From Bacilli bacterium (GTDB taxonomy: Bacteria; Bacillota_I; Bacilli_A; RFN20; CAG-826), in contig JBAZHG010000001.1 in NCBI GenBank assembly GCA_041652475.1, positions 8,161 to 72,160 of the forward strand: 64,000 nucleotides of DNA, given 5' to 3'. This document shows, in pieces, positions 4,117-41,496 of the stretch (position 1 is its first letter; every line of letters begins with the position of its first letter). The translations under genes were made by a program, and so were the position numbers. Below the pieces are notes generated by a model, which ran no database searches, had not been told where the DNA came from, and saw nothing but the letters and a program-made list of their open reading frames with translations.

Positions 4117-6204
4117 TTAGTCAATCAGGATCGGCAGCGGGTCGACCATCAAGTCGACCGAAGCCACCTGGGCATAATCTTCATCCATGTCATGGGCGGT
4201 GACCGCCATGTCGCTGACGGCGAAGAGATACGATCCGATGTAGACCGCTCGGGTGATGCTGGCCGACCAGTAAGAGAAGTAACCGTACCGATCGACGAGT
4301 TCGTCTTGATGCTCGATCGCGAAGCCGCTGTGGCTGATCACGGCCTCAATCGTAATCGGGGTCTCCGAGCTCGGATCGACGTTGAAGACATAGTAATTGT
4401 CAAGATAGATCCAATCATAAGCCACGCCATAGTAGTAGCTGGAAATGCTGAATCCGAGCAACCCGAGTTCGATGTCGACCAGCAGGGCCTTGTGGTTATA
4501 TAACGCCTCGCTCCACTGCCAGCCGTAATCTTCGTTCCACAACACGAGCGGTTCCCCGACGACGACGGGATTTTCTAAATCGCTGACGTCGAACAAGGTG
4601 AGTTTGAGCCCGAAGACATCGTTACCTTCGGATTCATAGCCTATCCCCAAAATCAAATTGGGCGCCCACACGTGTTGATAGGTGGCATAGCCGCTGACCT
4701 TAAGTCCGGCTTCGATCGTCGGATGGAGCGGATCGGACAAATCGACCGTGTACAACGGGTCGGTGATTTCGTAGGTCACAATCGTGGCCGCGTCTTCGTT
4801 GAAGCGGACCGACCTCACCGTTTCGCCCGGTTCTCCAATCCCTTCGTCGATGAGGGCGACTTGAGTCAGAAAACGTTTTTCATCAATGGTTTGGCGCTCG
4901 TAGACATAGAGGCGGTTCTTGGCGGAACTGCCCCAGCCATCGGTGGTCACCATCCGGAGATAGCCGTCGTATTCGTCGATGGCAAATTGATTCAAGACCC
5001 AGCCTTTATAGGTGCCGGCCCCGCCGAAGGTGACCGTCCCGTCTTCTTCAAAGAGGTACGACATCAAGAGGCCGTTATAGCCGTAGCTGTCCCCGATGAC
5101 GCTGTAATAGTAATAATAGCTGGCCAGGTAGATGGCTTGATGGCTCACGTAAACGATGCCCCAACTGGCGTTTCCAAGGAAGATGTCGAGCCCCAAGGCT
5201 TCCGAATTGATTTCTTGGTCCAGGAAGATCGTCGCGATGATAGTGAAGGTTTCGGTCGGGAGCGATTCCATGTACTTGATGTCGGAAAACTCCGGCACGA
5301 TCACTTCTTCGTCGACGCGGAAAACCGGCCGCGGATCATCGTCTTCGTCGACGAAATAGGGTTGATGGTTCGAGATGATATACAAGCGTTCACCAATCAT
5401 CCGGGTGGTGAGATAGTAGCCGTTAAGTTCAATCTCATGGGCTAGTTCCAAATCGTCGAGATTATACAAATAAACCATGGTCTGGGGGATGCCCCAGTAG
5501 TAGCATAGGCAATCGATCGCGGCTTCGCCGTCTTGGTATTCGTAGGTGAAGATCTCGTAACGTTGCCCGATGACCACCAAATAGTCTTCACTTAAGTAAA
5601 TGTCCGAAAAATAGGTATAGCTCCCTTCGTCTCGAAGCGAGTCCATCGATTGATCGAGGATGACTTCCATCTGTCCTTCCTCGAGGACGTCGATAACTTG
5701 GAGACGGTTATAGGAAATCTTGTAGATGCGGTCGTCGTCGACTTTGATGATGTCGCCCTCGTCGACGCCCTCGACTTGGACGTTGGTCTCCGAGTGGCCC
5801 GAACCTTCATTATCCCCCTGATCGTCGGCCGGGCTTTCAGTGGTCGCGAGAGAACTACCGTCGGTGTTATACCCGACTTCGGGGACGCCGCTCCGCCACG
5901 AGTAACTGTCAATCAAATCGCGGAGCTGATCGACGTCTTGGACTTGGGCTAAGCCGTAATCATTTGGGTTGCGGTTGTCCTTGTAGTCGGATATGATCAC
6001 CGCGCCGATGGCAAGCGAAGCCGCCAGGGCGGTCAAAAGGCTCCCGCCTTTCCAAACAAGCGGCCGCCATTTCGGGGTCCGTTTGGGACTGGGGGTGCCC
6101 GTCGGGGTCGTGAAAACGAGTTTGTTTGAGAAATCGAAATCCGGGGTTCGATCTTGGAAATAGGCGCGACCTTGCTCTTTGATTTCTTTCTTGAAGTTCT
6201 TCAT
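4117..6204 (-). CDS. Membrane-anchored anti-sigma factor with a large extracytoplasmic beta-propeller-type domain (Beta_propel/PF09826-like)
   Basis: 695 aa. A short cytoplasmic N-terminus is followed by a single TM (LLTALAASLAIGAVIIS) and a long aromatic/Tyr-rich repetitive ectodomain (YYYYYS, GYYL, YGW...). The gene starts 2 nt after the ECF sigma stop and has an AGGAGG SD. Confidence 0.7.
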   Translation of the reverse strand: MKNFKKEIKEQGRAYFQDRTPDFDFSNKLVFTTPTGTPSPKRTPKWRPLVWKGGSLLTALAASLAIGAVIISDYKDNRNPNDYGLAQVQDVDQLRDLIDSYSWRSGVPEVGYNTDGSSLATTESPADDQGDNEGSGHSETNVQVEGVDEGDIIKVDDDRIYKISYNRLQVIDVLEEGQMEVILDQSMDSLRDEGSYTYFSDIYLSEDYLVVIGQRYEIFTYEYQDGEAAIDCLCYYWGIPQTMVYLYNLDDLELAHEIELNGYYLTTRMIGERLYIISNHQPYFVDEDDDPRPVFRVDEEVIVPEFSDIKYMESLPTETFTIIATIFLDQEINSEALGLDIFLGNASWGIVYVSHQAIYLASYYYYYSVIGDSYGYNGLLMSYLFEEDGTVTFGGAGTYKGWVLNQFAIDEYDGYLRMVTTDGWGSSAKNRLYVYERQTIDEKRFLTQVALIDEGIGEPGETVRSVRFNEDAATIVTYEITDPLYTVDLSDPLHPTIEAGLKVSGYATYQHVWAPNLILGIGYESEGNDVFGLKLTLFDVSDLENPVVVGEPLVLWNEDYGWQWSEALYNHKALLVDIELGLLGFSISSYYYGVAYDWIYLDNYYVFNVDPSSETPITIEAVISHSGFAIEHQDELVDRYGYFSYWSASITRAVYIGSYLFAVSDMAVTAHDMDEDYAQVASVDLMVDPLPILID

Positions 6205-7456: not shown

Positions 7457-11006
<3,550 letters not shown>

Positions 11007-11082: not shown

Positions 11083-11523
11083 TTATTTCTTCTTGCGGGC
11101 CAGCCGGCGGATGCGCAGTTCCTCGGCGGCGATGCGTTTAAGAAGCCGCAAGTCGGGGTCGGATAGCACGTGGGACTTGTCGACGATGCCGTCGAAGGTC
11201 ATCTTGTCATAGACGAATTCGACGACGTTGGCGTATGGAAGCGGCTTTTTGGTCGCTTCGGTATTTTTCTTCTCATTGACGCTTTTGCCGGCGCCTTTCA
11301 AGAAGGTTTCAAGATCGGGAAGCAATTCCTTGAGATCGAAGGAATAGTCCATGGTGGCAATCGGGTTGAAAAAGGCGGCCGCCTCCTGGATCGTTTCCGG
11401 CAGGAGGCCGATTTGGTGCGAAAGGGCCTCGGCCGTCAAATACTTGGCTTTGCTGCCTTTGATGCCCGCGTAGAGTTTTTGAATCGTCTTCAAAGAAGGT
11501 TTGTTCATCCTAAACATAATCAT
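11083..11523 (-). CDS. Hypothetical protein (about 146 aa)
   Basis: ORF with an SD-like GGCGGTGA upstream. A possible HTH-like segment (LTAEALSHQIGLLPETIQEAAAFF) and a basic C-terminus (RIRRLARKKK). No family recognised. Confidence 0.5.
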   Translation of the reverse strand: MIMFRMNKPSLKTIQKLYAGIKGSKAKYLTAEALSHQIGLLPETIQEAAAFFNPIATMDYSFDLKELLPDLETFLKGAGKSVNEKKNTEATKKPLPYANVVEFVYDKMTFDGIVDKSHVLSDPDLRLLKRIAAEELRIRRLARKKK

Positions 11524-11589: not shown

Positions 11590-11665
<76 letters not shown>

Positions 11666-11724: not shown

Positions 11725-11751
11725 AAAGAAAAGCCCGTCATTCGACGGGCT
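11725..11751 (-). terminator. Rho-independent terminator after the lipoprotein gene
   Basis: Hairpin agcccgtc-attc-gacgggct, followed on the minus strand by TTTTCTTT. Confidence 0.7.
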
Positions 11752-11771: not shown

Positions 11772-12920
11772 TTATGGCGCTGGGACGAGAGTCAACTCTT
11801 CTGGAAGAATCGGGAGCAGCTGCGCTCCGTTGTACCAACCAAGGACTCCTTCGAAGGTGACCGTGGCCCCATCGACGGCGGCTTGGAACGTATCAAGGAT
11901 GTATTGGCGGCGGTCGGCCTTTCCCGGCTCGTCATTGTGGTAATTCAAGTAAACGGGAATGGTGGTCGCGCCTAATTTCATGTAAATGGTGGCGTGCGTG
12001 CCCAGACTGACTTCTCCGGTGGCCGTGGCATCGTAGGTCAAGCCTTCGACGCGGATCAGGCCTCCGTCTTGGCCGCTGACGAGCGTCGCCCAATCGGTTT
12101 CGGTCACGACGGTCGCGACCGGATCAAGGGCGGTTTCATCAATCGGCGCCGGGCTGATGCGGGTGATATACGATAATTGGCGCGAGCCGGCGTACAAGGC
12201 GAATGAAGCCATGACTTCAACATAATCACCGATGGTGACGAGCGCCAATAGATCGGGCGACCAATCCAAGTGGTACAAATTGATGCCGGCGGTCCCGTTG
12301 TGGATGAAGGCCGAATTCCAGTCAACCATGTTACGGGTCAAATATCCGCGCATCCGCACCAGATAGGCGCCATATGCATCTTTCGGACCATCGGCCGGAG
12401 GCGTGACCGTGTCCAGCGGCAAGAGCGGAATCAATGACAAATCGGTCGTTTCGGGCAAAATCGTAATCGGGAATTCCTTGGACACGGACTTTTCGTTCAA
12501 GGTGGCCGTGGCAATGACCGAGGTCTCCGCGTTCGGGGAGCCAAAATCGGGTCGGATGGGATTGGCTAGATACACGTTGGTATTGTCAACCAAACCCGGA
12601 ATCGAGGTTTTTTCGCGGAAGGGGCTCCAATGAGCCTCGGTGCCTTCCTTGACCGTCCAAGAGATTGGAATCGTGTGTTCGATTTCGGTTTCCTCGTCAT
12701 AGACCTTGGCTTCCCTCAATAGGAACAAGGCCCCGTCGATTTCTTCGGTTTCGCCTTCATAGAATTCAAGCGATTGGCCGTTGCTCTTGATGGCCAAGGT
12801 CGGGGTCGCCAACGCCTGTTCCATTAAGACCATGTCGGGATCGGTGCCGCAGCTTCCCATGGCGAAAACCGAAAGCAGTAGACCGAGTCCGAGCGTGGCG
12901 AGTTTAATCTTTTGATACAT
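11772..12920 (-). CDS. Lipoprotein of unknown function
   Basis: 382 aa. The signal peptide ends in a lipobox (LLLSVFAMGSCG). Last gene of the nuclease/ABC cluster. Confidence 0.7.
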   Translation of the reverse strand: MYQKIKLATLGLGLLLSVFAMGSCGTDPDMVLMEQALATPTLAIKSNGQSLEFYEGETEEIDGALFLLREAKVYDEETEIEHTIPISWTVKEGTEAHWSPFREKTSIPGLVDNTNVYLANPIRPDFGSPNAETSVIATATLNEKSVSKEFPITILPETTDLSLIPLLPLDTVTPPADGPKDAYGAYLVRMRGYLTRNMVDWNSAFIHNGTAGINLYHLDWSPDLLALVTIGDYVEVMASFALYAGSRQLSYITRISPAPIDETALDPVATVVTETDWATLVSGQDGGLIRVEGLTYDATATGEVSLGTHATIYMKLGATTIPVYLNYHNDEPGKADRRQYILDTFQAAVDGATVTFEGVLGWYNGAQLLPILPEELTLVPAP

Positions 12921-12937
12921 ATAATCGTCTCCTTTCC

Positions 12938-14386
12938 CTAGGCCAAAGCGGTGATGGCCACATCATTGAGCAATTGTAATTGGTAATTTTCGTAGAACTG
13001 GGCGATGTAACCGCTGACTTCATAACTCGCTCCGAGTTCGAACCAATCGTAGTCGACATACGGGAATAGACCTCCGTCAATCCGGAGATTGAAGGAAATG
13101 TCGGTCCCGAAGAAATGGGCATAAATCGTCATGTTGTCGCTGCCGTCTTTGCGCCAGTAATCCCCATAGGTGTAACTGGGGTCGTCTTCTTCGTCGAAGG
13201 TGACTTGGCGGATGGTGACGTTGGCGGTGACGTAAAACCCGTTATAAGGGGCGAAATCGGTCTTGTCGTCGACTTCCAGCCCGGTGAAATCGAGCGGATC
13301 GGCGTTCGCCGCTTCCGGGGCGATGCCGTAAGTGGCGATTAATTCAGAAAAATTCTCCGCTTCCCCGGGCACTAATTTGACAAATGGATACTTTTGTGAG
13401 TAAGTGGTTAGTTCCGGGTCGGTGAATTGAAATGAATTGGTGGCTGCAAATACCGTCGCCTTGCAGTAGAATTCGATGATGTCGCCGGCTTTGGTCGCCA
13501 GCGGGACGCCGCGGTACTGCGTGAAGACGAAAACCGTCGCATAATAGCCGTCTTCGTCGGGGTTGTAGACATCGCGGATCACCATGTTGTTGCCGATCGA
13601 GCCGAGGAACATCGCCCGGACCCGGATCTTGGTCGAATCGTAAAGGGTAATCATGACCGGATCTTCGTTCTCGTCAAAGACGAGATTGCCTTCGCGATCT
13701 TGAAGTTGCACCGTTTCGCCATAGGCGGCCCGAGCAAAGCGGATCGAGATGTCGTAGACTTGGTCGGTATAGTCGAAGGTCGGATCGTCCTCGCCGTAAA
13801 TGCGGGCTCCGGTGGCCGAGGCGTGGGCGCCGGCCCGGGAGAAAGCGTCAAAGTAATCGCATACGGTCGATTGGTCGAACAAAAGGTTTTCGGTATAGGC
13901 CTGCTCGACGAGCTCGAGGTTTAATAGCCGATAGCGGGCGTTCAAGGCCGGTTGGTACCAGACAAAACCCAAATAGCGGCCGCCCGAGCTGTCGGTGACC
14001 CCAAACAAATTACGGTCGTTGATCAAGATGATGCTGGTGGCCGTCGTCAGCTTTTCCTTGGTGAATTCGCTGGCGGCCTTGCCCCACGGTTGGATCTTGC
14101 CGGTCGATTCCGGGGTGTTGATGCCGAGGAAGCGCACCGGGACGTTGGTGCTCCCAACGTTGAAGCGGGCCGTATCCCCGTCGGTCGACGAGCGCAGCGT
14201 CGCCAGACCGATTCCGTCGGTCAAGAAATCCTTGCCCGAGTAATCGCCGACGAAAGTCAAGGCGTCCGTCTCGGCGGTGTTCAAATCGTCCGGTGTCAAA
14301 GACACCGGTTCCGAGGAAGAACCGCATCCGGAGAGGACTGTGGCCAGAAAGGCCAATATAGGAATGATAAATTGTCGAACTCTCAT
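12938..14386 (-). CDS. Lipoprotein with a staphylococcal-nuclease (SNase/thermonuclease) domain plus a C-terminal extension
   Basis: 482 aa. Lipobox LATVLSGCGS. SNase core motifs: DGDTARFNVG..VPVRFLGINTPES..WGKAASEFTKEKL...GRYLGFVWY. Confidence 0.8.
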   Translation of the reverse strand: MRVRQFIIPILAFLATVLSGCGSSSEPVSLTPDDLNTAETDALTFVGDYSGKDFLTDGIGLATLRSSTDGDTARFNVGSTNVPVRFLGINTPESTGKIQPWGKAASEFTKEKLTTATSIILINDRNLFGVTDSSGGRYLGFVWYQPALNARYRLLNLELVEQAYTENLLFDQSTVCDYFDAFSRAGAHASATGARIYGEDDPTFDYTDQVYDISIRFARAAYGETVQLQDREGNLVFDENEDPVMITLYDSTKIRVRAMFLGSIGNNMVIRDVYNPDEDGYYATVFVFTQYRGVPLATKAGDIIEFYCKATVFAATNSFQFTDPELTTYSQKYPFVKLVPGEAENFSELIATYGIAPEAANADPLDFTGLEVDDKTDFAPYNGFYVTANVTIRQVTFDEEDDPSYTYGDYWRKDGSDNMTIYAHFFGTDISFNLRIDGGLFPYVDYDWFELGASYEVSGYIAQFYENYQLQLLNDVAITALA

Positions 14387-14396
14387 AAACGCTCCA

Positions 14397-15977
14397 CTAT
14401 TCGGTCGGTTCGATGTAGCGGGATAATGATGTGTAACTGTAATCGATGATTTCTTGCGAGGTCATCGGGATGCCGTCTTTGCCGTAGAAAAGCATCGGGA
14501 AGATGGTGCCGATCTGCTCGCGGATATCGGAACTCCCGACGAAGCCGGGGTCGACGAATTTATGCCAATTGGCGGCGGCGGCGCCGTAGACCTCGGCGTT
14601 GACCTTGGCGGCGTTGATCTTGCTCATGTTGTATTCGCTGTCACCGGTCGTGCCGATGTAGTTTTGGTAGAAGGTGCTGTTAAGGCCGGATTCGGTCACC
14701 GGATAATAACCGGTGTTCAAGGCGAATTCGGCATTGGCGGTCGTCGTCAGGTAACGGACAAAGAGCCAAGAAGCCAGGACTTTCTCTTCATCGCGGTTCT
14801 TGAACATGGCCAAGTTCGTGCCTTGGGAAATGACGTATTTGTGATCGGCGTCTTTGCCGACGATTGGATTAATCGAAACTTTGAAGGCGTTGCCGACCGG
14901 GACGTTGTTGTAAACGCCGGCCGAAGAGGAAACGGTCATCACCGATTTCAACGAGACGAACGGGACCGAGTTATAGCTGGATTCGCCGAAGGAAGTCGGA
15001 ATGGCGAAAATCTGGTCGGCGTGGAGTTCGCGGAAGAAATCGAGCATGGCGAGGGTCGAGGCGGAGTTGTATTGGAGATAACCCTTGGTGATGTTTTCGC
15101 CCATCTTGGTGTATTGGCCGCCCCATTGGCGCACCATCGTGATGAAAAGGTTGCTAGTCGAGTCGTAAGAGAAGGGACGGAATTCATCGGCGGTGACGGC
15201 GGAGAAATCCAATAAAAGTCTCGGATGTCCGAGTTTACCGGCATTGTCGTTAACGTTGCCGTCGACGTCGATCTTATGGCCAAAGGCGCCAATGCGGCCC
15301 ATGGCGGCCAGGATTTGCTCGCCGGAGGTGCGGACTTCGTCCCACGTGGTCGGAATCACGATCCGGTTGTCCTTGGTGACGATCCAATCCATGAAGGTTT
15401 GGTTGACGACCATGACTTCCGTCGATTTGTTAAACGGCAAGCCGAGGGTGTAGGGATCGGTCTTTTCTTCGTCCTTGAATTGGAAGGACCTGTTTTCGAT
15501 CATGTAGTCGGCCACGTAATCGTCGACGTCGACCCCGATGTCAGGATCGGTCGATTCGAGGAAGGGGTCGAGGGCATATTGAATCGAGGAGCGGATGTAG
15601 CTCGCAAAGTGATCCGGGTAGCCGACGGCGACTTGCGGATAGGAGTTTGATGTAATCGACAGGTTGATGGCTTTGAGCAGGTTGTCGTAGCCGCCCTTGG
15701 AGGTGTGGTTCACCTTGATGAACGGATATTCGGTTTCAAAAGCCTCGATGGCCGGGAGGATGCCCGTCGAAGTGACGGCGCCACCGAAACCGGTCCAAAA
15801 GTCGATTTCAAGCGGGGATGCAGCCGAATAATTGGTTTCGAGTTGGTCGACCGTCAAAGCCGCGGCTTCGGTTGGAAGCTGCACTTCATAGGTGGCGACG
15901 TTACTGCATCCGGCCGCCAAGACGACGGCGACGGCGGCGGCAATGCCGGTCATTCCGTATTTGAATAGTTTCTTCAT
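14397..15977 (-). CDS. ABC transporter substrate-binding lipoprotein (extracellular solute-binding family 1, sugar/CUT1-type)
   Basis: 526 aa. Lipobox VVLAAGCSNV. Large periplasmic-binding-protein-like sequence. Sits next to the CUT1-type permeases. Confidence 0.75.
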   Translation of the reverse strand: MKKLFKYGMTGIAAAVAVVLAAGCSNVATYEVQLPTEAAALTVDQLETNYSAASPLEIDFWTGFGGAVTSTGILPAIEAFETEYPFIKVNHTSKGGYDNLLKAINLSITSNSYPQVAVGYPDHFASYIRSSIQYALDPFLESTDPDIGVDVDDYVADYMIENRSFQFKDEEKTDPYTLGLPFNKSTEVMVVNQTFMDWIVTKDNRIVIPTTWDEVRTSGEQILAAMGRIGAFGHKIDVDGNVNDNAGKLGHPRLLLDFSAVTADEFRPFSYDSTSNLFITMVRQWGGQYTKMGENITKGYLQYNSASTLAMLDFFRELHADQIFAIPTSFGESSYNSVPFVSLKSVMTVSSSAGVYNNVPVGNAFKVSINPIVGKDADHKYVISQGTNLAMFKNRDEEKVLASWLFVRYLTTTANAEFALNTGYYPVTESGLNSTFYQNYIGTTGDSEYNMSKINAAKVNAEVYGAAAANWHKFVDPGFVGSSDIREQIGTIFPMLFYGKDGIPMTSQEIIDYSYTSLSRYIEPTE

Positions 15978-16008
15978 ATATTGTCTCCTTTGTTTCTTGT
16001 CTTTTTTT

Positions 16009-16036
16009 ATTATACACCCTATGGGTGCGTTGACAA
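16009..16036 (-). promoter_or_regulatory. Strong internal sigma-70 promoter (TTGTCA-16-TATAAT) driving the substrate-binding lipoprotein gene
   Basis: The minus strand reads TTGTCAacgcacccatagggtgTATAAT. About 30 nt downstream are the SD AAAGGAG and the ATG. Confidence 0.6.
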
Positions 16037-16038
16037 AC

Positions 16039-16944
16039 TTAGCCTTTGATGCCGCTGCGCGAGACGCCGCGCATGATGTACTTCTTGAAGATGAGGAAGA
16101 AAGCCAACAGCGGCGTGGTGACGACGACCGAAGCCGCCAGTTTGATGTTGCTCCACTGCGAGTACTCGGCCGATTGGAAAATGCTCATCAAGCCGTTGGC
16201 AACCAACTGCATCGAATCGCTTTCGGTGACGAGGGCCGGCCAAATGTAGGCGTTCCAAGAGCCCATGATCTGCAAGATGACGACGGTGACGATCGAAGGC
16301 AGGGCGATCGGGATCATCACTTTCCAGAGGTAGGCGAAATCCCCATAGCCGTCGACCTTGCTGGCCAGATAGAGCTCATTGGGAATCTGTTGGAAAGTCT
16401 GGCGCAGGTAGAAGGTGTAGAACACGCTGACCGAGAATGGGAAGATCAAGGCCATGAAGGTATCGCGCCATTGAAAGACGGAAATGGTTTGGTAGTTGGT
16501 GATGACCATCATTTCGCCCGGAATCATCATGGTGGCCAACAAAAGCGTGAATAGGGCTTCTTTGCCCTTGAAGTTCAAGCGGGCAAAGGCGAACGCCGCC
16601 AAGACGGTGGTCACCACCGAAATGGAGGTCGTGGCCAAAGCCACGATGATGGTGTTCAAATAGTAGCGCCCGAAGTTGACTTGGGCCGAGCGCCCGAACA
16701 CGATCACGAAGTTGGCGAAGGTGACCTCGCTCGGAAAGAAATTCAAGACGCCGGAAATCCGTTCGGATTCCAAAACGGCGTTGCTTTTGAGCGAGGTGAT
16801 GATCATCCAATAGAACGGAATCAAAATGAAGAGCGCCAGCAAGGTCAAAAAGCCGTACATCAAGAAATTGCTGAAGAATCGGGCGACCTTGTAACGACGC
16901 ATCGCGTTGGCGTCGGCAAAGTATAATTCGCGGTCGATTGCCAT
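16039..16944 (-). CDS. ABC transporter permease (MalG/UgpE-like, CUT1 family)
   Basis: 301 aa polytopic. EAA-like loop region (..LASKVDGYGDFAYLWKVMIPIALPSI..). Confidence 0.85.
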   Translation of the reverse strand: MAIDRELYFADANAMRRYKVARFFSNFLMYGFLTLLALFILIPFYWMIITSLKSNAVLESERISGVLNFFPSEVTFANFVIVFGRSAQVNFGRYYLNTIIVALATTSISVVTTVLAAFAFARLNFKGKEALFTLLLATMMIPGEMMVITNYQTISVFQWRDTFMALIFPFSVSVFYTFYLRQTFQQIPNELYLASKVDGYGDFAYLWKVMIPIALPSIVTVVILQIMGSWNAYIWPALVTESDSMQLVANGLMSIFQSAEYSQWSNIKLAASVVVTTPLLAFFLIFKKYIMRGVSRSGIKG

Positions 16945-16959
16945 AATCTCGCCTCCTTC

Positions 16960-17895
16960 CTAATAGTGGATCCGCTTCTTGGAAGCCAAGAATTGGATGC
17001 CGGTGATGACTAAGATGATCAAAAGCAAGAGGATGCTCCCGGCCGCGGCTTTGCCGGTGTCGGTGCGCATCACTTTGTAAACATAGCCGACGATGGTGAT
17101 CCAGGTGTTGCCGTCGCTGCCGCCGAAGTTGAAGGGGCCGGCTCCGAATATCGAGATGACCGAAGTATACATCTTGAAGGCCCCAATAAATGAGGTAATC
17201 GTGATGTAGAAGATTTGAGGAGAAAGCAGCGGCACCGTGATTTTGGAGAAAATGCGGGCCTTCGAGGATCCGTCGATCCGGGCCGCGTCATAGTATTGCT
17301 TGTCGATGCTGGCGAGCCCGGCCATGAAGACCAAGACCTTGAAGGCGAGGCCGTTCCAAAGCGAGGAAGTCACGAGGACGACCGCCATGTTGAATTTGGT
17401 GGCCCCGTCGGCCCCGACCCAGTTCTGGGCCGTAAGCCCGAACCAGGACAAAAGCTGGTTCATGAGGCCGCTATCGTATTTTGAAAACATGACGTTGAAC
17501 ACCATGCCAAGGGCAATCGAGTTCGTCACATAGGGCAGGAAGAAAATCGTTTGATACAAACCTTTGAGGAATTTGACGTTGTGGAGGGCGACCGCCAAAA
17601 GGAGCGAGACCACGATCGTAAGCGGGACGCTGACGACCACGAGGATGGCCGTGTTGATGACCGCGTCGAGGAAAATCGGGTCGGCGAGCACCGAGAGGTA
17701 GTTGCCTAACGAGGGGAAGGCGTCAAAGGTATTGCCGAATAGCCACAGCCCGGCGCCGGGCCACCAAGCAAAGTTGTCCATGAAGGACAATAGGAACGTG
17801 TTGACGATTGGGAAAAAGATGAAAAGGGTCAAAACCACCATGGCCGGAGCCAAGGCGATGAATGCCTTCCAACCGTCGCGCTTGCCTTCAAACAT
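16960..17895 (-). CDS. ABC transporter permease (MalF/UgpA-like, CUT1 family)
   Basis: 311 aa polytopic. EAA motif region (DAARIDGSSKARIFSKITVPLLSP). Confidence 0.85.
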   Translation of the reverse strand: MFEGKRDGWKAFIALAPAMVVLTLFIFFPIVNTFLLSFMDNFAWWPGAGLWLFGNTFDAFPSLGNYLSVLADPIFLDAVINTAILVVVSVPLTIVVSLLLAVALHNVKFLKGLYQTIFFLPYVTNSIALGMVFNVMFSKYDSGLMNQLLSWFGLTAQNWVGADGATKFNMAVVLVTSSLWNGLAFKVLVFMAGLASIDKQYYDAARIDGSSKARIFSKITVPLLSPQIFYITITSFIGAFKMYTSVISIFGAGPFNFGGSDGNTWITIVGYVYKVMRTDTGKAAAGSILLLLIILVITGIQFLASKKRIHY

Positions 17896-19244
17896 TATTT
17901 GATCCTCGCGCCATCGGTTTCAAAGACGTAGAACCGCTTGGCCGCCAATTTCATGATGCCGGGAGATACTTTTTCGGACAATTCGCTCGGGATGATGATG
18001 CGCATCTTGGCGTTCGAGCCGACGGCTTTCCCGACCAGGGAGATGTCGCGTCCGATGTGTTCGATGAATTCGACGTTGACGGAGAATTTGGCCGAAGCCG
18101 CTTCTTCGATGCTGAAGGCTTCGGGACGAATCCCGATCACGACCTTGCGGTTTTTCTTCAAGGCGACCTTCATCTTGGTCAAGGCGGCGACGAATTTCTT
18201 CTCGTCGTCTTTATAGCCTTTCGCACGGGCATGGGCCAAGACGTTAGGAATCGTCAACTCGAAGGGCACCGTGACCGGCGTCCCGTTTTCGTCGCGGGTT
18301 TGGGTTTGATGCAAAGCCAGGTAATAGTCTTCAAACGAAAGGGTATAGCCCGAGGCGGACAATAGGCCATGGACTTCTTGTCCGTCCAAGGCCAAGTCGC
18401 CTTTGGCGTCGTAACCTTTGTCGAAAATCTTGCCGTCGAGGAGGAGCTTGCCGTCTTTCAGTTCGCCGTCGACGATGTTGATGGCCGGCGAGCCGAGGAA
18501 TTTAGCCACGAAGAGGTTGATCGGTTCGTTATAGACCCTCTGGGGTTCGTCGACTTGTTGGACGATGCCTTTGTCCATGACGACGATGAAATCGGAAATC
18601 GACATCGCTTCTTCTTGGTCATGGGTGACGAAGATGGTGGTGATGCCGGTTTCCCGTTGGATCCGTTTGATTTCTTCGCGGGTTTGAAGCCGGAGCCGGG
18701 CGTCGAGGTTGCTGAGCGGTTCGTCGAGCAGAAGGACGCGGGGCCGTTTGGCCAAGGCGCGGGCGATGGCCACCCGTTGCTGCTGGCCGCCCGAGAGTTG
18801 TTTCGGTTTCCGTTCGAGGTAGGGCTTGATGTCGACGAGTTCGGCCATGCTTTCGGCGATGGCGTTCATCTCAGCCTTGGTGTAGCGACGCGGTTTGCCG
18901 GTTTCCGGATCGGAATAATCACGGACGTTTTCAAGCGGGAAAAGGATGTTCCCCCGGACCGTGAAGTGCGGATAAAGGGCATAATTTTGGAACACGAGGC
19001 CGATGCCGCGCTTTTCCGGCGGGACGTTGGTGACCTCGGATTCGCCGAAGTAGATCGAACCTTCGGTCGGTTTGTGCAAGCCGGCGATCAGATAAAGCGT
19101 CGTCGATTTGCCGCAGCCCGAAGGACCTAACAGTCCGACTAATTTGCCATCCGGGATCGTGATCGACATATTGTCGACGGCGCGGGTTTCATCACCCTTT
19201 TTGCCTACGAAGACCTTTGATAGCTTTTCCAGTTTTACTTCCAT
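17895..19244 (-). CDS. ABC transporter ATP-binding protein (MalK/UgpC-like) with an enlarged C-terminal regulatory domain
   Basis: 449 aa. Walker [10 protein letters not shown], signature [15 protein letters not shown], Walker [12 protein letters not shown]. It is the first gene of the cluster, which is atypical. Confidence 0.9.
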
Positions 19245-19330: not shown

Positions 19331-20377
19331 TTAGGAGTCGGATTTGTCTTCGGGATTTTCCTCACTGGGAATCTTCGATTCGGTTTCCAGAGTTGGCGTG
19401 GCCGGGGTCATGTCTTGATAGGCCTGGCGCTTGGCCGATTGATAGGCTTCCTCGGCGGCCAACTTCTTTTCGTAGGCGGCGGCGTCCTCGGCGTTGGCGA
19501 AAATGAGCGATTCCTTCAAATTGACGACCCTCGTCTGGGCGACGAAGTCATGGGCTGAGCGGTTGCCCTTGGTGAAAATCATCAAGGTGTAGCTGATCAA
19601 GAACGCCCCCATGATGGTGTAAACCGACAAGACGATTTCGGCCGCGAACATCAAAAACCGGACCAGGAGCTGCCAAGCTTTTAACTTGTAGCCCTGCTTG
19701 CCGATGACGCCCAAGTTGAACAGTTTCTTGGCCAAGGTTTGCCCGTTTTTGAAAATAAGCGGCAGCAACAAATAGAAAATAAGCACGGTCACCGATCCGG
19801 AAATGGCCAATATTTGTAGCGAATAGGAACTGATCTGGGCCGCCAGTTCGGCGTAAGGTCCGTAGTCGTTTAGGTCCAGTTGGGCCGATTGGTATGCGGC
19901 TTGGTAGAAGGTACCCAGTTGCTCTTCGGTGGCGTCGGTCTTGGGAACCCCGCGGAGCGAGGGGTCGGGCACTTCGAATTCGTCAAGATCATATTCGAAA
20001 TAGACCGTGATCGTCGCGTCGCTCGTCCCGATGTTTAAAATGTTGGAGTTGTACCATTCGTTGGTGAAGGCGAACGGGGTCGCCTCGTCGGCGTAGGTCT
20101 TGCCGACTTTGAATTCAGAATAGTAGGCGTAGACGGCGTCGGGGATATCCTCGTCGCTACGATAGGTGATGACCTTGGTCTCGGTGTCCTCTACGTAAAG
20201 ATGGGTCGCTAGTTGAATGGCGATGTAATCGTCTTGGATCGCCCGGGTCCCGAAAACCTGGTTGTAGATTGGGCTGACGGCGTAGGTGATGAGGGCCAGC
20301 CACACGAGGACCGCCAATAAAAAATCCAGGATCGCGGCGCCCGAGCGTTTGGCCAAGTTGGCTGGTGCAATGTTCAT
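19331..20377 (-). CDS. RDD-family-like membrane protein with an acidic C-terminal tail
   Basis: The N-terminal region (KRSGAAILDFLLAVLVWLALITYAV) is RDD-like. The alternative upstream ATG at 20437 would add an AT-rich, promoter-like 20 codons, so the start is placed at the ATG at 20377. The ATG is preceded by an AT-rich -10-like sequence and no SD. Confidence 0.55.
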   Translation of the reverse strand: MNIAPANLAKRSGAAILDFLLAVLVWLALITYAVSPIYNQVFGTRAIQDDYIAIQLATHLYVEDTETKVITYRSDEDIPDAVYAYYSEFKVGKTYADEATPFAFTNEWYNSNILNIGTSDATITVYFEYDLDEFEVPDPSLRGVPKTDATEEQLGTFYQAAYQSAQLDLNDYGPYAELAAQISSYSLQILAISGSVTVLIFYLLLPLIFKNGQTLAKKLFNLGVIGKQGYKLKAWQLLVRFLMFAAEIVLSVYTIMGAFLISYTLMIFTKGNRSAHDFVAQTRVVNLKESLIFANAEDAAAYEKKLAAEEAYQSAKRQAYQDMTPATPTLETESKIPSEENPEDKSDS

Positions 20378-20454
20378 ATAAATATTATTTATAAACCAAT
20401 TAATATTATTAATGAGAGCGCTTTTAAAAGCAATCAAAAGATATTATTCGCAAT

Positions 20455-26486: not shown

Positions 26487-28049
26487 GAATGAGCCTCCCG
26501 GAGGGCGACGGTGATCGTCGCCTCGTGACCGTCAACCGCATCGATGGTTATCGTGTATGGGAACAAGTCCCCATCATTGAAGGAAAAATTCGGATAGTTG
26601 CCCTCGTCGAAGGCCTCCCCGGCTTCGAATAAGGACCCGTTCGTGGCCACGTAGCCGTGCTTGAGGGAATTCCGTCCGTTTGGCTCCAACAGCTGGATCA
26701 ATTTGTGGTAGGGGACCCCGCTCCGGCCGGCGCTGTTGCTGTTGGCCAGTCCGTAATAGACACTCGCAGTCCGGTTTTCCACCCGGTCGACGTAGTCTTG
26801 GAAACGCCACTGACCAGCGCGTTGGACGAAGCGGCCGGGCCGGGCGTCGATGTGGTAAAGCTTGATTCCGGCTTGGCTGAACTGGCGCGGGTAATAGCCG
26901 GCGAATGGTTGGGCCGCGTCCTTTTGATTCAAAGAATCAGGGCGATAGTATTCGATGAGCAGATACTCGTCGAGCAGCCGCTCGTCGTAATGGATCGGGA
27001 CGATGGCCGCCTCGGGCTCGGCCACCGACGGGGCGAGGCTGAAAGTCGCTTCGCCGTTGATGACCTTGGGCTGTAGCCAACCCAGGAGGGCTTTGGAAAA
27101 AGCCCCGTGGTCGCCGACGTTATAATCCATCATGTCGAGGGCCCCGCACGGACCCCAGTCGCCGCGATCGGCGTCGTAGGAATAATAATCGACCAAACCG
27201 AGAAAATGGCCGATTTCATGGATGTAGGTGTGGGCGTCAATCAGGAGTTTCCCGTATTCGTCGGTCCAGGGATGAAAGACCAGTTCGTCATTCTCATCGC
27301 GGAGCAAGCGGCCTTGCTCGTCGCGGTCGTAATAGCCGTCTTTGTACATGAAGTCGTAGCTGGACCACCCGTAATGGTAGACCCCGGGCCGGTTGACGTC
27401 GGCCACGCCGGCGTTATCGAAGCTCGTGTAGGCCCAAAACACCCGTTCCTCGTCGAGGAAAACTTCATCGTGGTCGTGGGCCGGGACCGAATAAACGAAG
27501 TACAAGGCGTCGATATAGCCGTCGCCGTCGCCATCAAAACGGGTCATGTCGTCAAGGTGATGCTCGCGGTACCAAGTCACGGCCGGGCGCATGATTTCCG
27601 CGGCGACCGAGTGTTCGTTCCGGAGCAAGAGGCTCATGGCCGGGACTTCGGCCTCGTACCACTCGCTGACTTCGCCTTCGAATTCGAGTTGCCCGTAGCT
27701 CGATAAGCCGTAGAACGAGCTGACCGAATGCCAGCCGGTTTCGGCGGGTTCCCCGAAGAAGGCCGCTTCGATGTCGGAACGCACCCCGGCGCACCCGCCG
27801 GTCAAGACGCGGCACGGATAATCGGAAAAAGTCACCGGGATGACCAAAATCGGGACGTTCCCGGTCGCCGGCGTCGCCGAGGCATAACCCTGGGCGCGTC
27901 GTAGGGTTTGGTAATCAAGTCGATACGCGGTCGGAGTCATGACGTCCGGGAGGCTCGTCGTTTCGCTCGAAACCGGCTCCGAAACCGAAGCGCAGCCCGA
28001 TATAACGACCATCGCCATGACATAAAAAAGGTTCTTCTTCATGTTCATT
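26483..28049 (-). CDS. Secreted zinc metalloprotease lipoprotein, M6/InhA-like HExxH zincin (paralog 2)
   Basis: The true start is MNMKKNLFYVMAMVVISGCAS. Its ATG overlaps the transporter stop (ATGA). Motifs HEIGHFLGLVDYYS and MMDYNVGDH. The ORF-track N-terminal 207 aa (Arg/Gly-rich) is an unstopped high-GC artefact. Confidence 0.7.
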
Positions 28050-29430
28050 CGACCAAACGGGGGAAAAGGAGATTCAAAACGAACGCCAACAGGATGATGA
28101 TCAAATAACTCGGAATCGGGGTGGTCCCGATCATGATTCGCAAAGAGGTATTGCCGAGGAAGTCGGAGATGAATTCCATCGTCGTCATCAAGATGCCGGC
28201 CCCGAGCACGACCATGGCCAAAGCCGTCGCCTGGGGGTGGAGATCGTCGTGGATCCGTTCGGTCACCCGCCCGAATCCGCGCACGGCTTGATAACCGGCC
28301 CAAGCCACGAGCACCCCGCCGACGGCCGGAAGCGGGATCAAGTCGAACGCCCGGGCAATCGGCAGATAAGCACTGAGACCGATGGTGAATAGCGCTAGAA
28401 GGACCAATACGAGCGGTCGGGCTTTCGGGAGCCGGGTCCCGATGGCGACCGTGTCCTCGTTGAAAGTGAGCGGGACCCCGGATACCATCCCCCCGACTAA
28501 AACGGCCACCCCTTCGATTAGGATGGTCTTGTCGGCGTGAGGGCTCTCTTCCGGGTTGGGGGCCGCCAAAGCGTAACGGGTGAGCGAGGCCATGTGCTCG
28601 GACACGGTCACCAAAACGAGCGGCACGAATAGAAGCAGGCTTTCCCAATCGAAGTGGAGATACTGCCAAAAGCCGAAGTAGGCTTCAAGGTTATGGAGCG
28701 GGGTCGGGGCCGTCTCGGCGAAGAACGAGGCGTTCATGAATCCAATCATCAGCGTTTCGTCGAGCGATTTCGATATCCACAGGAGCTCGACGGCGTCGAG
28801 CAGTAACCCCATGGCGACGCCACCGGCCAGGCCGATCAGTATTGCACTAGCCGGTTGCTGCCCGACTTTTTTGCTTAAGGAAGTGGTGATGAAATAGCCC
28901 ACGAAGGCGGCGACGGCCACCAGGACGTATTTATAAGCCGGGCCGCCCGATGCCAGGAGCGGCTCATAGTAGGCAAAGCTAAAAATCCGCGGCAAGAGCG
29001 ACAAGGCCAACAGGACCATCAAGGCCCCGCTGAAGGCCGGCGAAAAGACGCGGCGCATCCGCCGGACGCCGATGTAGCGCGCCAACGTCGCCAAAAGGAT
29101 GTACAAAAGCCCGCTGATCCATAGGGAAACTAGGAGGCCGCCGAGGCGGAAATTCCAAGCCGGGGTCCCGATTTCGAGCGTTTCGAGCGAGCGCCCGTAG
29201 ATGACGAGCCCGGCTAAAAAGACAAACGAAGGCGCGGCCCAAAGCGGGAAGCGGCGACCGCCCATGATCAAGACGACGAGCCCGGCCAGGCCGATCGAAA
29301 GCCAAATCGAAGAGAGGCCGACGTTGGCCCCCACGGCGACGACGAGCGACCATCCGAAAACGGCCAGCCATTGGCGCCAGCCGTTGGCCCATCCCTGCGG
29401 GACGCGGGTTTTCGTTCGGGTTTCGGTCAT
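28045..29430 (-). CDS. Polytopic membrane transporter-like protein (family not assignable by eye; possibly a nucleobase or solute permease)
   Basis: 461 aa with about 12 hydrophobic segments. Leaderless-type start (TATCAT -10, 7 nt before the ATG, no SD). Confidence 0.45.
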   Translation of the reverse strand: MTETRTKTRVPQGWANGWRQWLAVFGWSLVVAVGANVGLSSIWLSIGLAGLVVLIMGGRRFPLWAAPSFVFLAGLVIYGRSLETLEIGTPAWNFRLGGLLVSLWISGLLYILLATLARYIGVRRMRRVFSPAFSGALMVLLALSLLPRIFSFAYYEPLLASGGPAYKYVLVAVAAFVGYFITTSLSKKVGQQPASAILIGLAGGVAMGLLLDAVELLWISKSLDETLMIGFMNASFFAETAPTPLHNLEAYFGFWQYLHFDWESLLLFVPLVLVTVSEHMASLTRYALAAPNPEESPHADKTILIEGVAVLVGGMVSGVPLTFNEDTVAIGTRLPKARPLVLVLLALFTIGLSAYLPIARAFDLIPLPAVGGVLVAWAGYQAVRGFGRVTERIHDDLHPQATALAMVVLGAGILMTTMEFISDFLGNTSLRIMIGTTPIPSYLIIILLAFVLNLLFPRLVE

Positions 29431-41484: not shown

Positions 41485-41496
41485 GGAGAAATCACC

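Follow-up and report, generated by a model that had tools for sequence, protein, structure and literature searches.

A putative operon for capture, cleavage and import of nucleic-acid fragments in uncultured Bacilli related to Mollicutes

Six co-oriented genes in the window (the whole 64,000-nucleotide stretch of DNA analysed here) join a CUT1-type ABC importer to a substrate-binding lipoprotein, an SNase-domain lipoprotein and a further lipoprotein of 382 aa (Lp382), and they probably form a system that captures extracellular DNA or RNA at the cell surface, cuts it, binds the products and imports them. The operon appears to go back to the ancestor of a large clade of uncultured Bacilli related to Mollicutes. 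Such a system is known in outline from mycoplasmas; here it proves to be conserved in hundreds of uncultured relatives, in a form to which OB-fold domains have been added. The joining of transporter, nuclease and second lipoprotein had been proposed in an earlier note on this DNA and is supported here: all six open reading frames were found where it had placed them, on the minus strand from 19244 to 11772, in the order ATPase, permease, permease, internal promoter, substrate-binding lipoprotein, SNase lipoprotein and Lp382. The features are as follows.

19331..20437, minus strand: RDD-family membrane protein, upstream neighbour (368 aa; PF06271, 2.6e-14)
17895..19244, minus strand: ABC ATPase of MalK/UgpC type (449 aa) with a C-terminal MalK-OB regulatory domain
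16960..17895, minus strand: ABC permease 1, UgpA/MalF-like (311 aa; BPD_transp_1, 5.7e-15)
16039..16944, minus strand: ABC permease 2, UgpE/MalG-like (301 aa; BPD_transp_1, 5.1e-17)
16009..16036, minus strand: putative internal sigma-70-type promoter, TTGTCA-16-TATAAT (11/12 consensus)
14397..15977, minus strand: substrate-binding lipoprotein, UgpB / U3G-binding subgroup of CUT1 (526 aa; SBP_bac_8, 3.5e-20)
12938..14386, minus strand: SNase lipoprotein (482 aa; lipobox C21, SNase domain and C-terminal module)
13787..14224, minus strand: SNase catalytic domain (residues ~55-200)
12941..13774, minus strand: C-terminal module of the nuclease, two beta-rich domains (residues ~205-482)
11772..12920, minus strand: lipoprotein Lp382 (382 aa; lipobox C24, Ig-like domain and tandem OB folds)
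12456-12803, minus strand: N-terminal Ig-like beta-sandwich of Lp382 (residues ~40-155)
11775-12440, minus strand: tandem OB-fold module of Lp382 (residues ~161-382)
11732..11751, minus strand: terminator-like hairpin of 8 pairs (6 G-C) with the T-run TTTCTTT, immediately past the last gene, the putative operon end

In all three extracytoplasmic proteins the signal peptide ends at a lipobox cysteine (C24 in the binding protein, C21 in the nuclease and C24 in Lp382), which is invariant within each protein's own family alignment. The nuclease scores 37.1 bits on the Pfam SNase family PF00565, whose gathering score is 21, so the SNase assignment stands at profile level; the same family is matched by all 50 aligned members of the nuclease family, and the motif from which the domain had originally been recognized, DGDT...RFLGINTPES...WGKAASEFTK, is present. 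The AF2 model (pLDDT 92.4) superimposes on staphylococcal nuclease in Foldseek with TM scores of 0.83-0.89, mostly 0.85-0.89, and an rmsd of 2.2-2.6 Å for most matches. Residues D71, R85, T91, E93 and R137, equivalent to SNase D21, R35, T41, E43 and R87, are invariant across 50 divergent sequences, a pattern that implies selection for catalysis. The position of the Ca2+ ligand D40 is occupied by Asn (N90) in at least 90% of the family, whereas the characterised mycoplasma SNase enzymes keep Asp there (PMC12115388).

The C-terminal module of the nuclease turned out to be related to that of Lp382. A weak similarity between the two lipoprotein C-termini, previously judged by eye, proved to be real remote homology: hhalign aligned nuclease residues 210-474 to Lp382 residues 161-372 with a probability of 97.7% (E 1.6e-12), so that the homologous stretches cover the C-terminal ~270 aa of the former and ~210 aa of the latter. 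The Lp382 HMM also matches the C-terminal region of the nuclease open reading frames in many loci, and in the nuclease model this region consists of two runs of five or six strands each. Lp382 itself has no match in Pfam or NCBIfam and no catalytic domain; its AF2 model (pLDDT 91.8) shows the C-terminus as tandem OB folds, and Foldseek matches include the OB fold of RPA with ssDNA, the HIN-200 tandem OB of IFI16, RMI, the anticodon-binding OB of LysRS and SSB. None of the window's own proteins reaches the Pfam threshold for any OB family; in 19 large proteins that are distant relatives of the module, tRNA_anti OB or DUF5689 coincides with it above the Pfam thresholds. Distant copies of the module sit in secreted proteins, fused to Endonuclease_1 (Endonuclease I) in two of these 19, to a 5'-nucleotidase/metallophosphatase in one and to LTD in three. 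The OB modules are acidic in both families, with net charges between -1 and -15 for relatives of Lp382 and between -4 and -28 for the nuclease C-termini, unlike typical non-specific DNA binders, so any binding would need aromatic stacking or divalent-cation bridges.

The profile of the binding-protein family scores best against the PDB 7c0x/7c0f series (8e-36), about nine orders of magnitude ahead of UgpB (1.7e-26), and against sugar binders at 8e-14 or weaker. We take 7c0f/7c0x to be the Thermus thermophilus U3G (uridylyl-3'-5'-phosphoguanosine) binding protein of CUT1 subcluster D-I that Chandravanshi et al. described in 2021, although the depositors' name is 'sugar ABC transporter'; if so, among proteins of solved structure it is the closest to the one here, which is lipid-anchored, about 120 aa longer and aligned with it in three segments only. 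NCBIfam UgpB is matched by 36 of 40 family members and the mycoplasma family lipo_P68 by 30 of the 40. The phosphate tetrad Tyr/Ser/Ser/Tyr defined for UgpB (PMC12718374), together with Arg, is invariant in all 40 (Y97, S185, S351, Y424 and R486), and the tetrad is common to the Thermus protein as well. The Trp clamp that holds glycerol in UgpB (W169/W172) is absent from the 40-member alignment, and the Thermus protein has a larger pocket that also lacks it (PMC12718374). An invariant Asp, D122, lies beside the site at which UgpB has its glycerol-binding Glu, so recognition of diols may persist, and the phosphate site with its Arg would accommodate GPC and other glycerophosphodiesters no less than nucleotides. 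Placement in a sugar-specific clade, together with nuclease genes unlinked in relatives, had been named as what would tell against the scavenging reading; judged by profile, the protein is closest to phosphate-ester binders and not to sugar binders.

The remaining transporter components are likewise Ugp-like in their best matches. The ATPase matches Pfam ABC_tran (2e-36) and OB_MalK (2.2e-07), and its best NCBIfam match, UgpC, scores 325 bits, below the cutoff of 432; the best match of permease 1 is UgpA, at 86 far below the cutoff of 335, and that of permease 2 is UgpE. The MalK-OB domain of the ATPase carries a variable insertion of ~80 aa (residues ~287-363), at which the tblastn matches in several relatives are split.

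Homologues of the nuclease number 731 in the protein database, and among uncultured Bacilli 487 species-level genomes, many labelled Mollicutes, Acholeplasmataceae or Erysipelotrichaceae, encode relatives. Linkage was counted in 80 species genomes, each component being scored only in relatives with enough flanking sequence. The binding protein is encoded directly upstream of the nuclease in 75 of 75 relatives (and its gene is duplicated in 30 of 70), both permeases and the ATPase lie upstream in 63 of 63, and a member of the Lp382 family follows directly downstream in 68 of 78. Nuclease and transporter are thus linked in every scorable relative, down to 29% nuclease identity. The module often occupies the same neighbourhood, downstream of tuf, and so looks vertically inherited; given its wide spread, its presence in this chromosome is not the surprise that it had first seemed. 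The GC content of the region (0.53-0.55) is the same as that of the surroundings. Nor can a host-associated lifestyle be read from it: the relatives come, by record titles only, from rumen, gut and apparently also non-host sources, and the window also encodes a photolyase-like gene. An RDD-family gene lies upstream of the ATPase gene in 51 of 60 relatives; membership of its product in the system is uncertain.

The proposed system would work in four steps. Lipid-anchored Lp382, built of an Ig-like spacer followed by two OB folds, would hold extracellular DNA or RNA at the membrane, a role suggested by its folds and by the domain fusions of its distant relatives. The lipid-anchored SNase with its homologous tandem module is predicted, from its catalytic residues and fold, to cleave the captured nucleic acid, and the chemistry of the SNase family (EC 3.1.31.1) would yield short 3'-phosphorylated mono-, di- and oligonucleotides. 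The binding protein, a lipid-anchored member of the phosphate-ester branch of CUT1 beside UgpB and the Thermus dinucleotide binder, would take these products through its conserved phosphate site, in a pocket free of the UgpB glycerol clamp, and the two UgpA/E-like permeases and the MalK/UgpC-like ATPase would move them into the cell. Nucleotide import is an inference here, as it is in mycoplasmas; a literature search found no experiment on any protein of the families described here.

In function, the operon would correspond to the 'nucleotide transporter' operon of mycoplasmas (P80/P81/MslA, SNase, ABC), represented by MAG_5030-5070 of M. agalactiae (P80, SNase, ATPase, two permeases), MBOVPG45_0307-0311 of M. 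bovis (P81), MslA/MGA_0676 of M. gallisepticum, mhp379 of M. hyopneumoniae, MPN133 of M. pneumoniae and MG_186 of M. genitalium. The nuclease, P80 and ABC genes of mycoplasmas are cotranscribed, and import of nucleotide precursors has been proposed for them (PMC3585158). The claim that our locus mirrors this arrangement holds for gene content (PMC3585158, PMC4045577) but not for gene order, which in mycoplasmas is lipoprotein, nuclease, ATPase, permease, permease. To go by the published descriptions of the mycoplasma side, both have one co-oriented cluster with a lipid-anchored SNase-domain nuclease that retains the catalytic Arg/Glu/Arg, a large SBP-like lipoprotein, a CUT1-type ATPase longer than MalK or UgpC, and two permeases, and the same role has been proposed, digestion of external nucleic acid and import of the products (PMC3585158, PMC4045577, PMC9740415). 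[quoted passage not shown] The operon here, by contrast, has a separate Ig-plus-tandem-OB lipoprotein. Likewise, the nuclease here has 482 aa with its C-terminal tandem-OB module as against 250-390 aa in characterised mycoplasma SNases, and, unlike in mycoplasmas, GC is ~55% and the six open reading frames are uninterrupted under table 11, the standard bacterial code.

Other known systems share parts of this design. UgpBAEC of E. coli and Mycobacterium, which imports glycerol-3-phosphate and glycerophosphodiesters, has the same transporter architecture but is not accompanied by a nuclease and an OB lipoprotein as here. For the Thermus U3G-binding protein we know of no linkage to a nuclease; a secondary ('moonlighting') function is reportedly attributed to it by Chandravanshi and colleagues in FEBS J. 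Bacillus subtilis YhcR, the ExeM/NucH-type enzymes and the Endonuclease I fusions combine nuclease or nucleotidase domains with surface OB-fold, LTD or DUF5689 modules, and multidomain extracellular nucleases of this kind also harbour distant relatives of the Lp382 module. All of these are giant single polypeptides anchored through a sortase or type IX secretion, whereas the module here is distributed over two lipoproteins, and to our knowledge they are not tied to a dedicated ABC importer. Ca. Izemoplasmataceae, wall-less relatives within the Bacilli, have clustered genes for secreted SNase-type nucleases and uptake that have been read as evidence of DNA foraging (Wasmund et al. 2021, PMC8289736). 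The SNase domain here shares 42-48% identity with theirs; the locus that we inspected encodes three SNase paralogues, a giant aBig_2 protein, two DHH/DHHA1 phosphoesterases and a Na/Pi cotransporter but, unlike here, no CUT1 ABC importer.

Among other explanations, the transporter could be of Ugp type and bring in glycerophosphodiesters or glycerol phosphate as a source of lipid precursors and phosphate, with the nuclease and OB lipoprotein co-regulated in a general organophosphate-scavenging operon and their products not transported; for example, phosphate could be freed from nucleotides outside the cell and enter by another route. We consider this unlikely, even though each of the four transporter parts finds its best NCBIfam match in a Ugp protein, the phosphate tetrad and Arg are common to G3P- and GPC-binding proteins, D122 could act as the glycerol-binding acidic residue and the Thermus protein, according to a title cited in PMC12001685, was first predicted as a GPC binder. 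The scores lie far under the equivalog cutoffs, both clamp Trp residues are missing, the 7c0x series outranks UgpB, no GlpQ/UgpQ phosphodiesterase gene is found in the operon, and the tie between transporter and nuclease would be left unexplained.

A non-nutritional role, in which nuclease and OB lipoprotein clear extracellular DNA (biofilm matrix, traps), adhere to DNA-rich matrices or exclude foreign DNA while the ABC transporter takes up some solute unconnected with them, for instance an oligosaccharide, appears still less probable. It would accord with the implication of mycoplasma homologues in degradation of neutrophil extracellular traps and in cytotoxicity (PMC9740415), with the annotation of the M. 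bovis transporter genes, as of many others, as 'oligosaccharide ABC transporter' (PMC4045577) and with the arabinanase with Ig-like domains among Lp382's best Foldseek matches. Against this, the exceptionless linkage is hard to explain without functional coupling, sugar binders rank far behind phosphate-ester binders in score, the ligands of the phosphate do not vary, and immune traps would be irrelevant to the relatives whose record titles suggest non-host sources. It is least probable of all that the SNase-like protein is catalytically impaired and, with its OB domains and Lp382, only a surface receptor through which short oligonucleotides, produced by other nucleases, reach the transporter uncut. 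The replacement of D40 by Asn and the shared binding-type module in both lipoproteins would fit such a receptor, but the other catalytic residues are invariant, and substitutions of D40 in SNase lower activity without abolishing it, the Asn side-chain oxygen still being able to ligate metal.

Expression of the capture-and-import operon may itself be graded. The strong internal promoter described earlier is present as a consensus match, the top promoter-like site of the 9.7 kb scanned, lying in the 61-nt gap between permease 2 and the binding-protein gene and followed by an AAGGAG ribosome-binding site; placed before the three lipoprotein genes, it would probably let the surface components be made in larger amounts than the membrane channel. 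Within its spacer, directly against the -10 element, is the palindrome CACCC-ATA-GGGTG (16015-16027), a candidate operator with no second copy in the window. The -10 element and the palindrome are kept in relatives L001, L002, L003 and L006, and the change seen in L006 is symmetric.

The scavenging locus proposed in the earlier note comprises six co-oriented genes on the minus strand, running from 19244 down to 11772 with gaps of 0–61 nt, and both the reading frames and their Pfam families agree with the layout described there:

17895–19244, minus strand: ATPase, 449 aa; Pfam ABC_tran and MalK OB domain; closest NCBIfam family UgpC
16960–17895, minus strand: permease 1, 311 aa; BPD_transp_1; closest NCBIfam family UgpA
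16039–16944, minus strand: permease 2, 301 aa; BPD_transp_1; closest NCBIfam family UgpE
14397–15977, minus strand: substrate-binding lipoprotein (the binding protein), 526 aa; SBP_bac_8; closest NCBIfam family UgpB
12938–14386, minus strand: SNase lipoprotein (the nuclease), 482 aa; SNase PF00565
11772–12920, minus strand: Lp382 lipoprotein, 382 aa

All three extracytoplasmic proteins carry a signal peptide and a lipobox Cys, which is invariant in each family alignment. The MalK-type ATPase with its C-terminal OB domain, the two BPD_transp_1 permeases and the cluster-D binding protein are those of a CUT1 transporter (TC 3.A.1.1). Since the NCBIfam Ugp scores of all four transporter parts are far under the equivalog cutoffs, the importer is of the CUT1 type and not a Ugp equivalog. 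The ATPase exceeds MalK/UgpC in length by ~80 aa, which are contributed by a variable insertion into its regulatory domain at the C-terminus (residues ~287–363), where tblastn matches in relatives split; the M. bovis counterpart is reported to be longer still, at about 700 aa.

A scan of one genome per species detected a relative of the nuclease in 487 genomes, and the best 80 loci were studied. These all come from uncultured Bacilli, labelled Mollicutes, Acholeplasmataceae, Erysipelotrichaceae or Bacilli; some labels (Staphylococcaceae, Bacteroidaceae) are plainly unreliable. Among the loci with enough flanking sequence, the binding-protein gene lies directly upstream of the nuclease in 75/75 and both permeases and the ATPase lie upstream in 63/63, so the nuclease, which the earlier note allowed might prove unlinked in relatives, is linked throughout. 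An RDD-family membrane protein precedes the ATPase in 51/60 loci, tuf is found further upstream in 25/56, and a gene of the Lp382 family begins no more than 400 nt downstream of the nuclease gene in 68/78, as detected with the family HMM (single-sequence tblastn had found it in just 18/70). Because the linkage persists down to 29% nuclease identity, the operon appears, on comparative grounds, to be a core, vertically inherited feature of the clade and not an acquisition. Horizontal acquisition was rejected: the base composition of the operon is unremarkable and the tuf-RDD-operon neighbourhood is common to distant relatives. On the same evidence, the module is not the unexpected presence in this genome that it had been taken for. 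The pairing of nuclease and transporter is ancient: the clade comprises at least 487 species, and all scoreable relatives among the 80 examined have it.

To our knowledge, nucleotide synthesis is absent from Mollicutes and from their uncultured relatives. Their surface nucleases are presumed to supply an ABC importer, and we know of no identification of the transported molecule; for the mycoplasma transporter, the substrate has been guessed at since 2007. The idea of a nuclease coupled to an ABC transporter is itself already established for mycoplasmas, in which an SNase lipoprotein is encoded beside a large lipoprotein (P80/P81/MslA), an ATPase and two permeases. In M. agalactiae, the nuclease, P80 and ABC genes form one transcript, modelling of P80 gives a solute-binding protein, and the nuclease was proposed to supply nucleotide precursors to the transporter (PMC3585158). 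The corresponding M. bovis cluster has been named a putative nucleotide transporter operon.

The mycoplasma analogy drawn in the earlier note is right in gene content, and the proposed logic is the same. The SNase lipoprotein gene is co-oriented with those for the ATPase and both permeases in either system, a linkage kept in all 63 scoreable relatives. An SBP lipoprotein stands beside the nuclease here and in all 75 scoreable relatives, and may correspond to the P80/P81/MslA of mycoplasmas. The gene order, however, is not mirrored: the mycoplasma operon reads lipoprotein, nuclease, ATPase, permease, permease (PMC3585158), whereas here the ATPase gene comes first, followed by those for the two permeases, the binding protein, the nuclease and the OB lipoprotein. 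Unlike the mycoplasma system, this operon also has OB modules on the nuclease, a separate OB lipoprotein and an Asn at the position of staphylococcal nuclease D40. The mycoplasma family lipo_P68 is matched by 30/40 binding-protein members (best 3.2e-18, far under the 200-bit cutoff), which relates the binding protein to a mycoplasma surface lipoprotein family. Because M. hyopneumoniae P68 is mhp390, which does not adjoin mhp379, this match was set aside as proof of P80/MslA orthology. Free-living Izemoplasmataceae are known DNA degraders (PMC8289736). The homologous SNase of a Ca. Izemoplasmataceae genome lies in a different nucleic-acid degradation locus (L082; 1–10629, GCA_046541015.1), where three SNase paralogues are accompanied by an aBig_2 protein of 1123 aa, a pair of DHH/DHHA1 phosphoesterases and a PhoU-domain Na/Pi cotransporter but, unlike in the present operon, by no CUT1 importer.

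The SNase assignment of the nuclease (staphylococcal nuclease/thermonuclease, EC 3.1.31.1) stands at profile level: it scores 37.1 bits with PF00565, whose gathering score is 21, and 50/50 family members match. An alignment of 50 relatives, with identity down to 31%, was the source for an AlphaFold (AF2) model of mean pLDDT 92.4. The predicted structure contains the OB-like β-barrel fold of SNase: in Foldseek comparisons, residues ~55–200 superpose on staphylococcal nuclease with target-normalised TM scores of 0.83–0.89, mostly 0.85–0.89, and an rmsd of 2.2–2.6 Å for most matches over about 140 columns. HMMER alignment to the S. aureus enzyme identified the catalytic trio as R85 (=R35), E93 (=E43) and R137 (=R87), all invariant in the 50 sequences, as are the Ca2+ ligands D71 (=D21) and T91 (=T41). 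Because its catalytic residues do not vary, we regard the nuclease as probably active. The SNase domain has a pI of 5.1; S. aureus nuclease is basic. At the position of the third Ca2+ ligand, D40, at least 90% of the family have an Asn (N90 here), whereas the characterised mycoplasma SNase enzymes retain Asp at this position (PMC12115388). Given N90, the metal preference of the nuclease may deviate from that of SNase.

The C-terminal regions of the nuclease and Lp382 had been noted as weakly similar by eye. BLASTP between the two proteins gave nothing significant (best E 1.9), but profile-profile comparison aligned nuclease residues 210–474 with Lp382 residues 161–372 at an hhalign probability of 97.7% and E 1.6e-12, so the resemblance reflects a homologous module; among the methods tried, only profile-profile comparison made it visible. 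The Lp382-family HMM also matches the C-terminal part of nuclease ORFs in many relatives. Close homologues of Lp382 are few, with 10 found by word search. A profile run against 1.84 billion representative proteins recovered 225 sequences, 41 of which were used to build the structural model (pLDDT 91.8). In this model, an N-terminal β-sandwich (~40–155), which matches Ig-like domains of a secreted arabinanase in Foldseek, is followed by two five-stranded barrels (~186–257 and ~288–369). The barrels match ssDNA-bound Pyrococcus RPA, RMI, the LysRS anticodon domain and SSB, and also the tandem-OB HIN-200 of IFI16 over about 205 columns; Foldseek probabilities were 0.98–1.00 for RPA, HIN-200, RMI and most LysRS, and 0.33–0.92 for SSB and some LysRS chains. 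The Lp382 copy of the module is thus a pair of OB barrels, and the nuclease C-terminus is tied to it by hhalign. A Foldseek search with the whole nuclease model returned staphylococcal nuclease entries for all of the top 50 matches and is silent on the C-terminal module.

These two homologous OB-fold modules were earlier unassigned, and no Pfam family covers them at threshold: neither the nuclease nor Lp382 reaches the threshold of an OB family (PF01336 tRNA_anti-codon, PF18942 DUF5689), and weak OB matches are limited to 1–3/41 Lp382-family and 2/50 nuclease-family members. In large distant relatives the module coincides with above-threshold tRNA_anti-codon OB and DUF5689 domains, and its fusion partners there are Endonuclease I (two proteins), a 5'-nucleotidase/metallophosphatase (one protein) and domains of the LTD, Big_2/aBig_2 and type IX secretion kinds. 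The above-threshold matches and nuclease fusions mark the module as a divergent OB/DUF5689-type domain pair, one that recurs in secreted nucleic-acid-degrading proteins. Its net charge is negative in every family member (–1 to –15 and –4 to –28 for the two module sets). If such acidic modules do bind nucleic acid, simple electrostatics cannot account for it.

Strong acidity is seen in all the predicted extracytoplasmic proteins of the window (4117–6204 and 11772–15977): net charges are –26 for the binding protein, –38 for the nuclease and –30 for Lp382, and a 695-aa β-propeller protein reaches –75, with a pI of about 4.1. In several relatives the Lp382-family gene downstream of the nuclease is expanded to 680–960 aa with 2–4 Ig-like/OB repeats (L035, L037, L044, L048, L049, L061, L065, L068, L069, L073–L075, L077 and L078).

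A profile of 40 orthologues of the binding protein was searched against all PDB sequences. The closest relative was the 7c0x/7c0f series (E 8e-36), which we take to be a Thermus thermophilus protein bound to uridylyl-3'-5'-phosphoguanosine (U3G), deposited under a generic name. Chandravanshi et al. reportedly found the T. thermophilus protein with bound U3G in 2021. E. coli-type UgpB followed at E 1.7e-26 and mycobacterial UgpB at ~1e-19, and the sugar binders in the PDB (maltose, arabino-oligosaccharide, trehalose and others) were at 8e-14 or weaker. The nearest relatives are therefore phosphate-ester binders, and the sugar-specific clade that would have spoken against the earlier note's thesis does not account for this protein. 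In the NCBIfam search, the binding protein of the window had no UgpB match at E <= 0.01, and its relatives reached 8e-20 at best.

The U3G-binding protein of T. thermophilus is close to UgpB, and in UgpB, the GPC binder and the U3G binder alike, two Tyr and two Ser coordinate the phosphate; UgpB alone adds a two-Trp glycerol clamp (PMC12718374). When E. coli UgpB (from NC_000913.3) was aligned with the 40 orthologues, the phosphate ligands Y97, S185, S351 and Y424 and the cleft residue R486 were invariant (40/40 members) and corresponded to E. coli Y65, S144, S270, Y346 and R397 (precursor numbering). UgpB and the binding protein thus have the phosphate Tyr/Ser/Ser/Tyr and the Arg in common, but the Trp clamp is confined to UgpB: its columns (E. 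coli W169/W172, mature) hold gaps or variable aliphatic residues in the orthologues. The column of the glycerol-binding Glu of UgpB is an invariant Pro, and since an invariant Asp adjoins it, the binding protein may make an acidic diol contact. On these comparisons, the protein appears to be neither an ordinary sugar binder nor a UgpB specific for G3P. At the level of individual residues, they argue for recognition of a phosphate ester and not of a sugar. This bears on annotation, since metagenome-assembled genomes routinely label such transporters as sugar or glycerol-phosphate importers.

The analysis establishes what the domains are and how they fold, the residues of the catalytic and phosphate sites, the homology of the modules and the linkage. 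From these we propose, as rather likely, a system that captures, cuts, binds and imports nucleic acid. Lp382 and the nuclease's own OB modules would hold the polymer, the SNase domain would release short 3'-phosphorylated products, the binding protein would take these by their phosphate, and the CUT1 channel would import them; the internal promoter may raise the dose of the three surface proteins. We infer a nucleotide-type ligand. The binding-protein data fit a larger phosphate ester and do not separate nucleotides from glycerophosphodiesters. In the main rival reading, the operon would scavenge organophosphates in general and its transporter would import glycerophosphodiesters. The phosphate site shared with the GPC binder would suit such a transporter; the closest solved relative of the binding protein is the presumed U3G binder, and the transporter is linked to a nuclease in every relative that could be scored. 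We consider this rival improbable.

A more specific form of the proposed capture-and-import system, which we put forward tentatively, is that the operon constitutes a self-contained 'nucleic-acid utilisation locus', comparable to a polysaccharide utilisation locus, that imports intact di- or oligonucleotide 3'-phosphates. The OB-fold lipoprotein would capture the polymer, the SNase-OB lipoprotein would cut it, and the intact products would enter through the CUT1 transporter via a binding protein of UgpB/U3G descent that has become specialised for them. If so, the operon would represent the first defined family of oligonucleotide ABC importers and an ancestral, more tractable form of the mycoplasma system. 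The binding-protein gene, single in the window, is tandem-duplicated in 30/70 loci, which suggests two ligand specificities in those species; on the same premise the duplicates would mark a split between, e.g., DNA- and RNA-derived or purine and pyrimidine products. Tandem copies upstream of the nuclease are found at L008, L012–L014, L016–L019, L021, L023–L025 and others. As the proteins are GC-rich in their coding and have uninterrupted ORFs under the standard bacterial code, their expression should be easier than that of the mycoplasma counterparts, which makes the substrate question directly testable. In the literature searched, we found no description of three points: that a large uncultured clade keeps the operon in all relatives examined, that the two lipoproteins share a tandem-OB module, and that individual residues place the binding protein with the phosphate-ester binders.

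Signs that the nuclease may be transcribed together with the transporter are indirect: the short intergenic gaps, one terminator-like hairpin after the last gene and a putative internal promoter. The hairpin, with a T-run, lies at 11751–11732 (minus strand), directly after the Lp382 gene. The 61-nt gap before the binding-protein gene contains a promoter-like TTGTCA-16-TATAAT (16036–16009, minus strand) followed by AAGGAG; no other site in the 9.7 kb scanned fits the consensus as well, which bears out the predicted internal promoter at the level of consensus. A perfect palindrome, CACCC-ATA-GGGTG (16015–16027), present as a single copy in the window, fills the promoter spacer and abuts the –10 element. 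Both palindrome and –10 are kept in the four closest relatives (L001, L002, L003 and L006), although in L006 the two arms have changed symmetrically at one position each (CACCT...AGGTG), and we regard the palindrome as a candidate operator for a regulator. In the intergenic alignment, conservation of the promoter region is limited to the closest relatives. The 86-nt gap before the ATPase gene has a perfect TATAAT with no good –35. In an Rfam scan, the operon matched neither a riboswitch nor any other RNA family, and the whole window gave only two tRNAs.

The RDD-family membrane protein directly upstream of the ATPase (19331–20437, minus strand) has a long N-terminal extension and may be a member of the system or merely part of a conserved gene order. 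On the other side, the putative operon terminator is followed by tRNA-Lys(CTT) (11590–11665, minus strand) and a 146-aa ORF (11083–11523, minus strand) with a basic C-terminus and no family match, which is found within 10 kb downstream of the nuclease in 28/58 relatives. The pyruvate:ferredoxin oxidoreductase gene of the region 7457–11006 (minus strand) is present as two overlapping ORFs (7457–10429 and 10266–11006), indicating a frameshift, a sequencing error or a pseudogene. The host-associated lifestyle suggested earlier is unsupported. The window also encodes a DNA-photolyase-like protein (46758–48071), which hints at a light-exposed, free-living habitat, and a xanthine/uracil-family nucleobase permease (28045–29430), which fits a salvage lifestyle. 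Other neighbours in the window are UvrA (1197–4052) and TrkH/TrkA (40105–42162).
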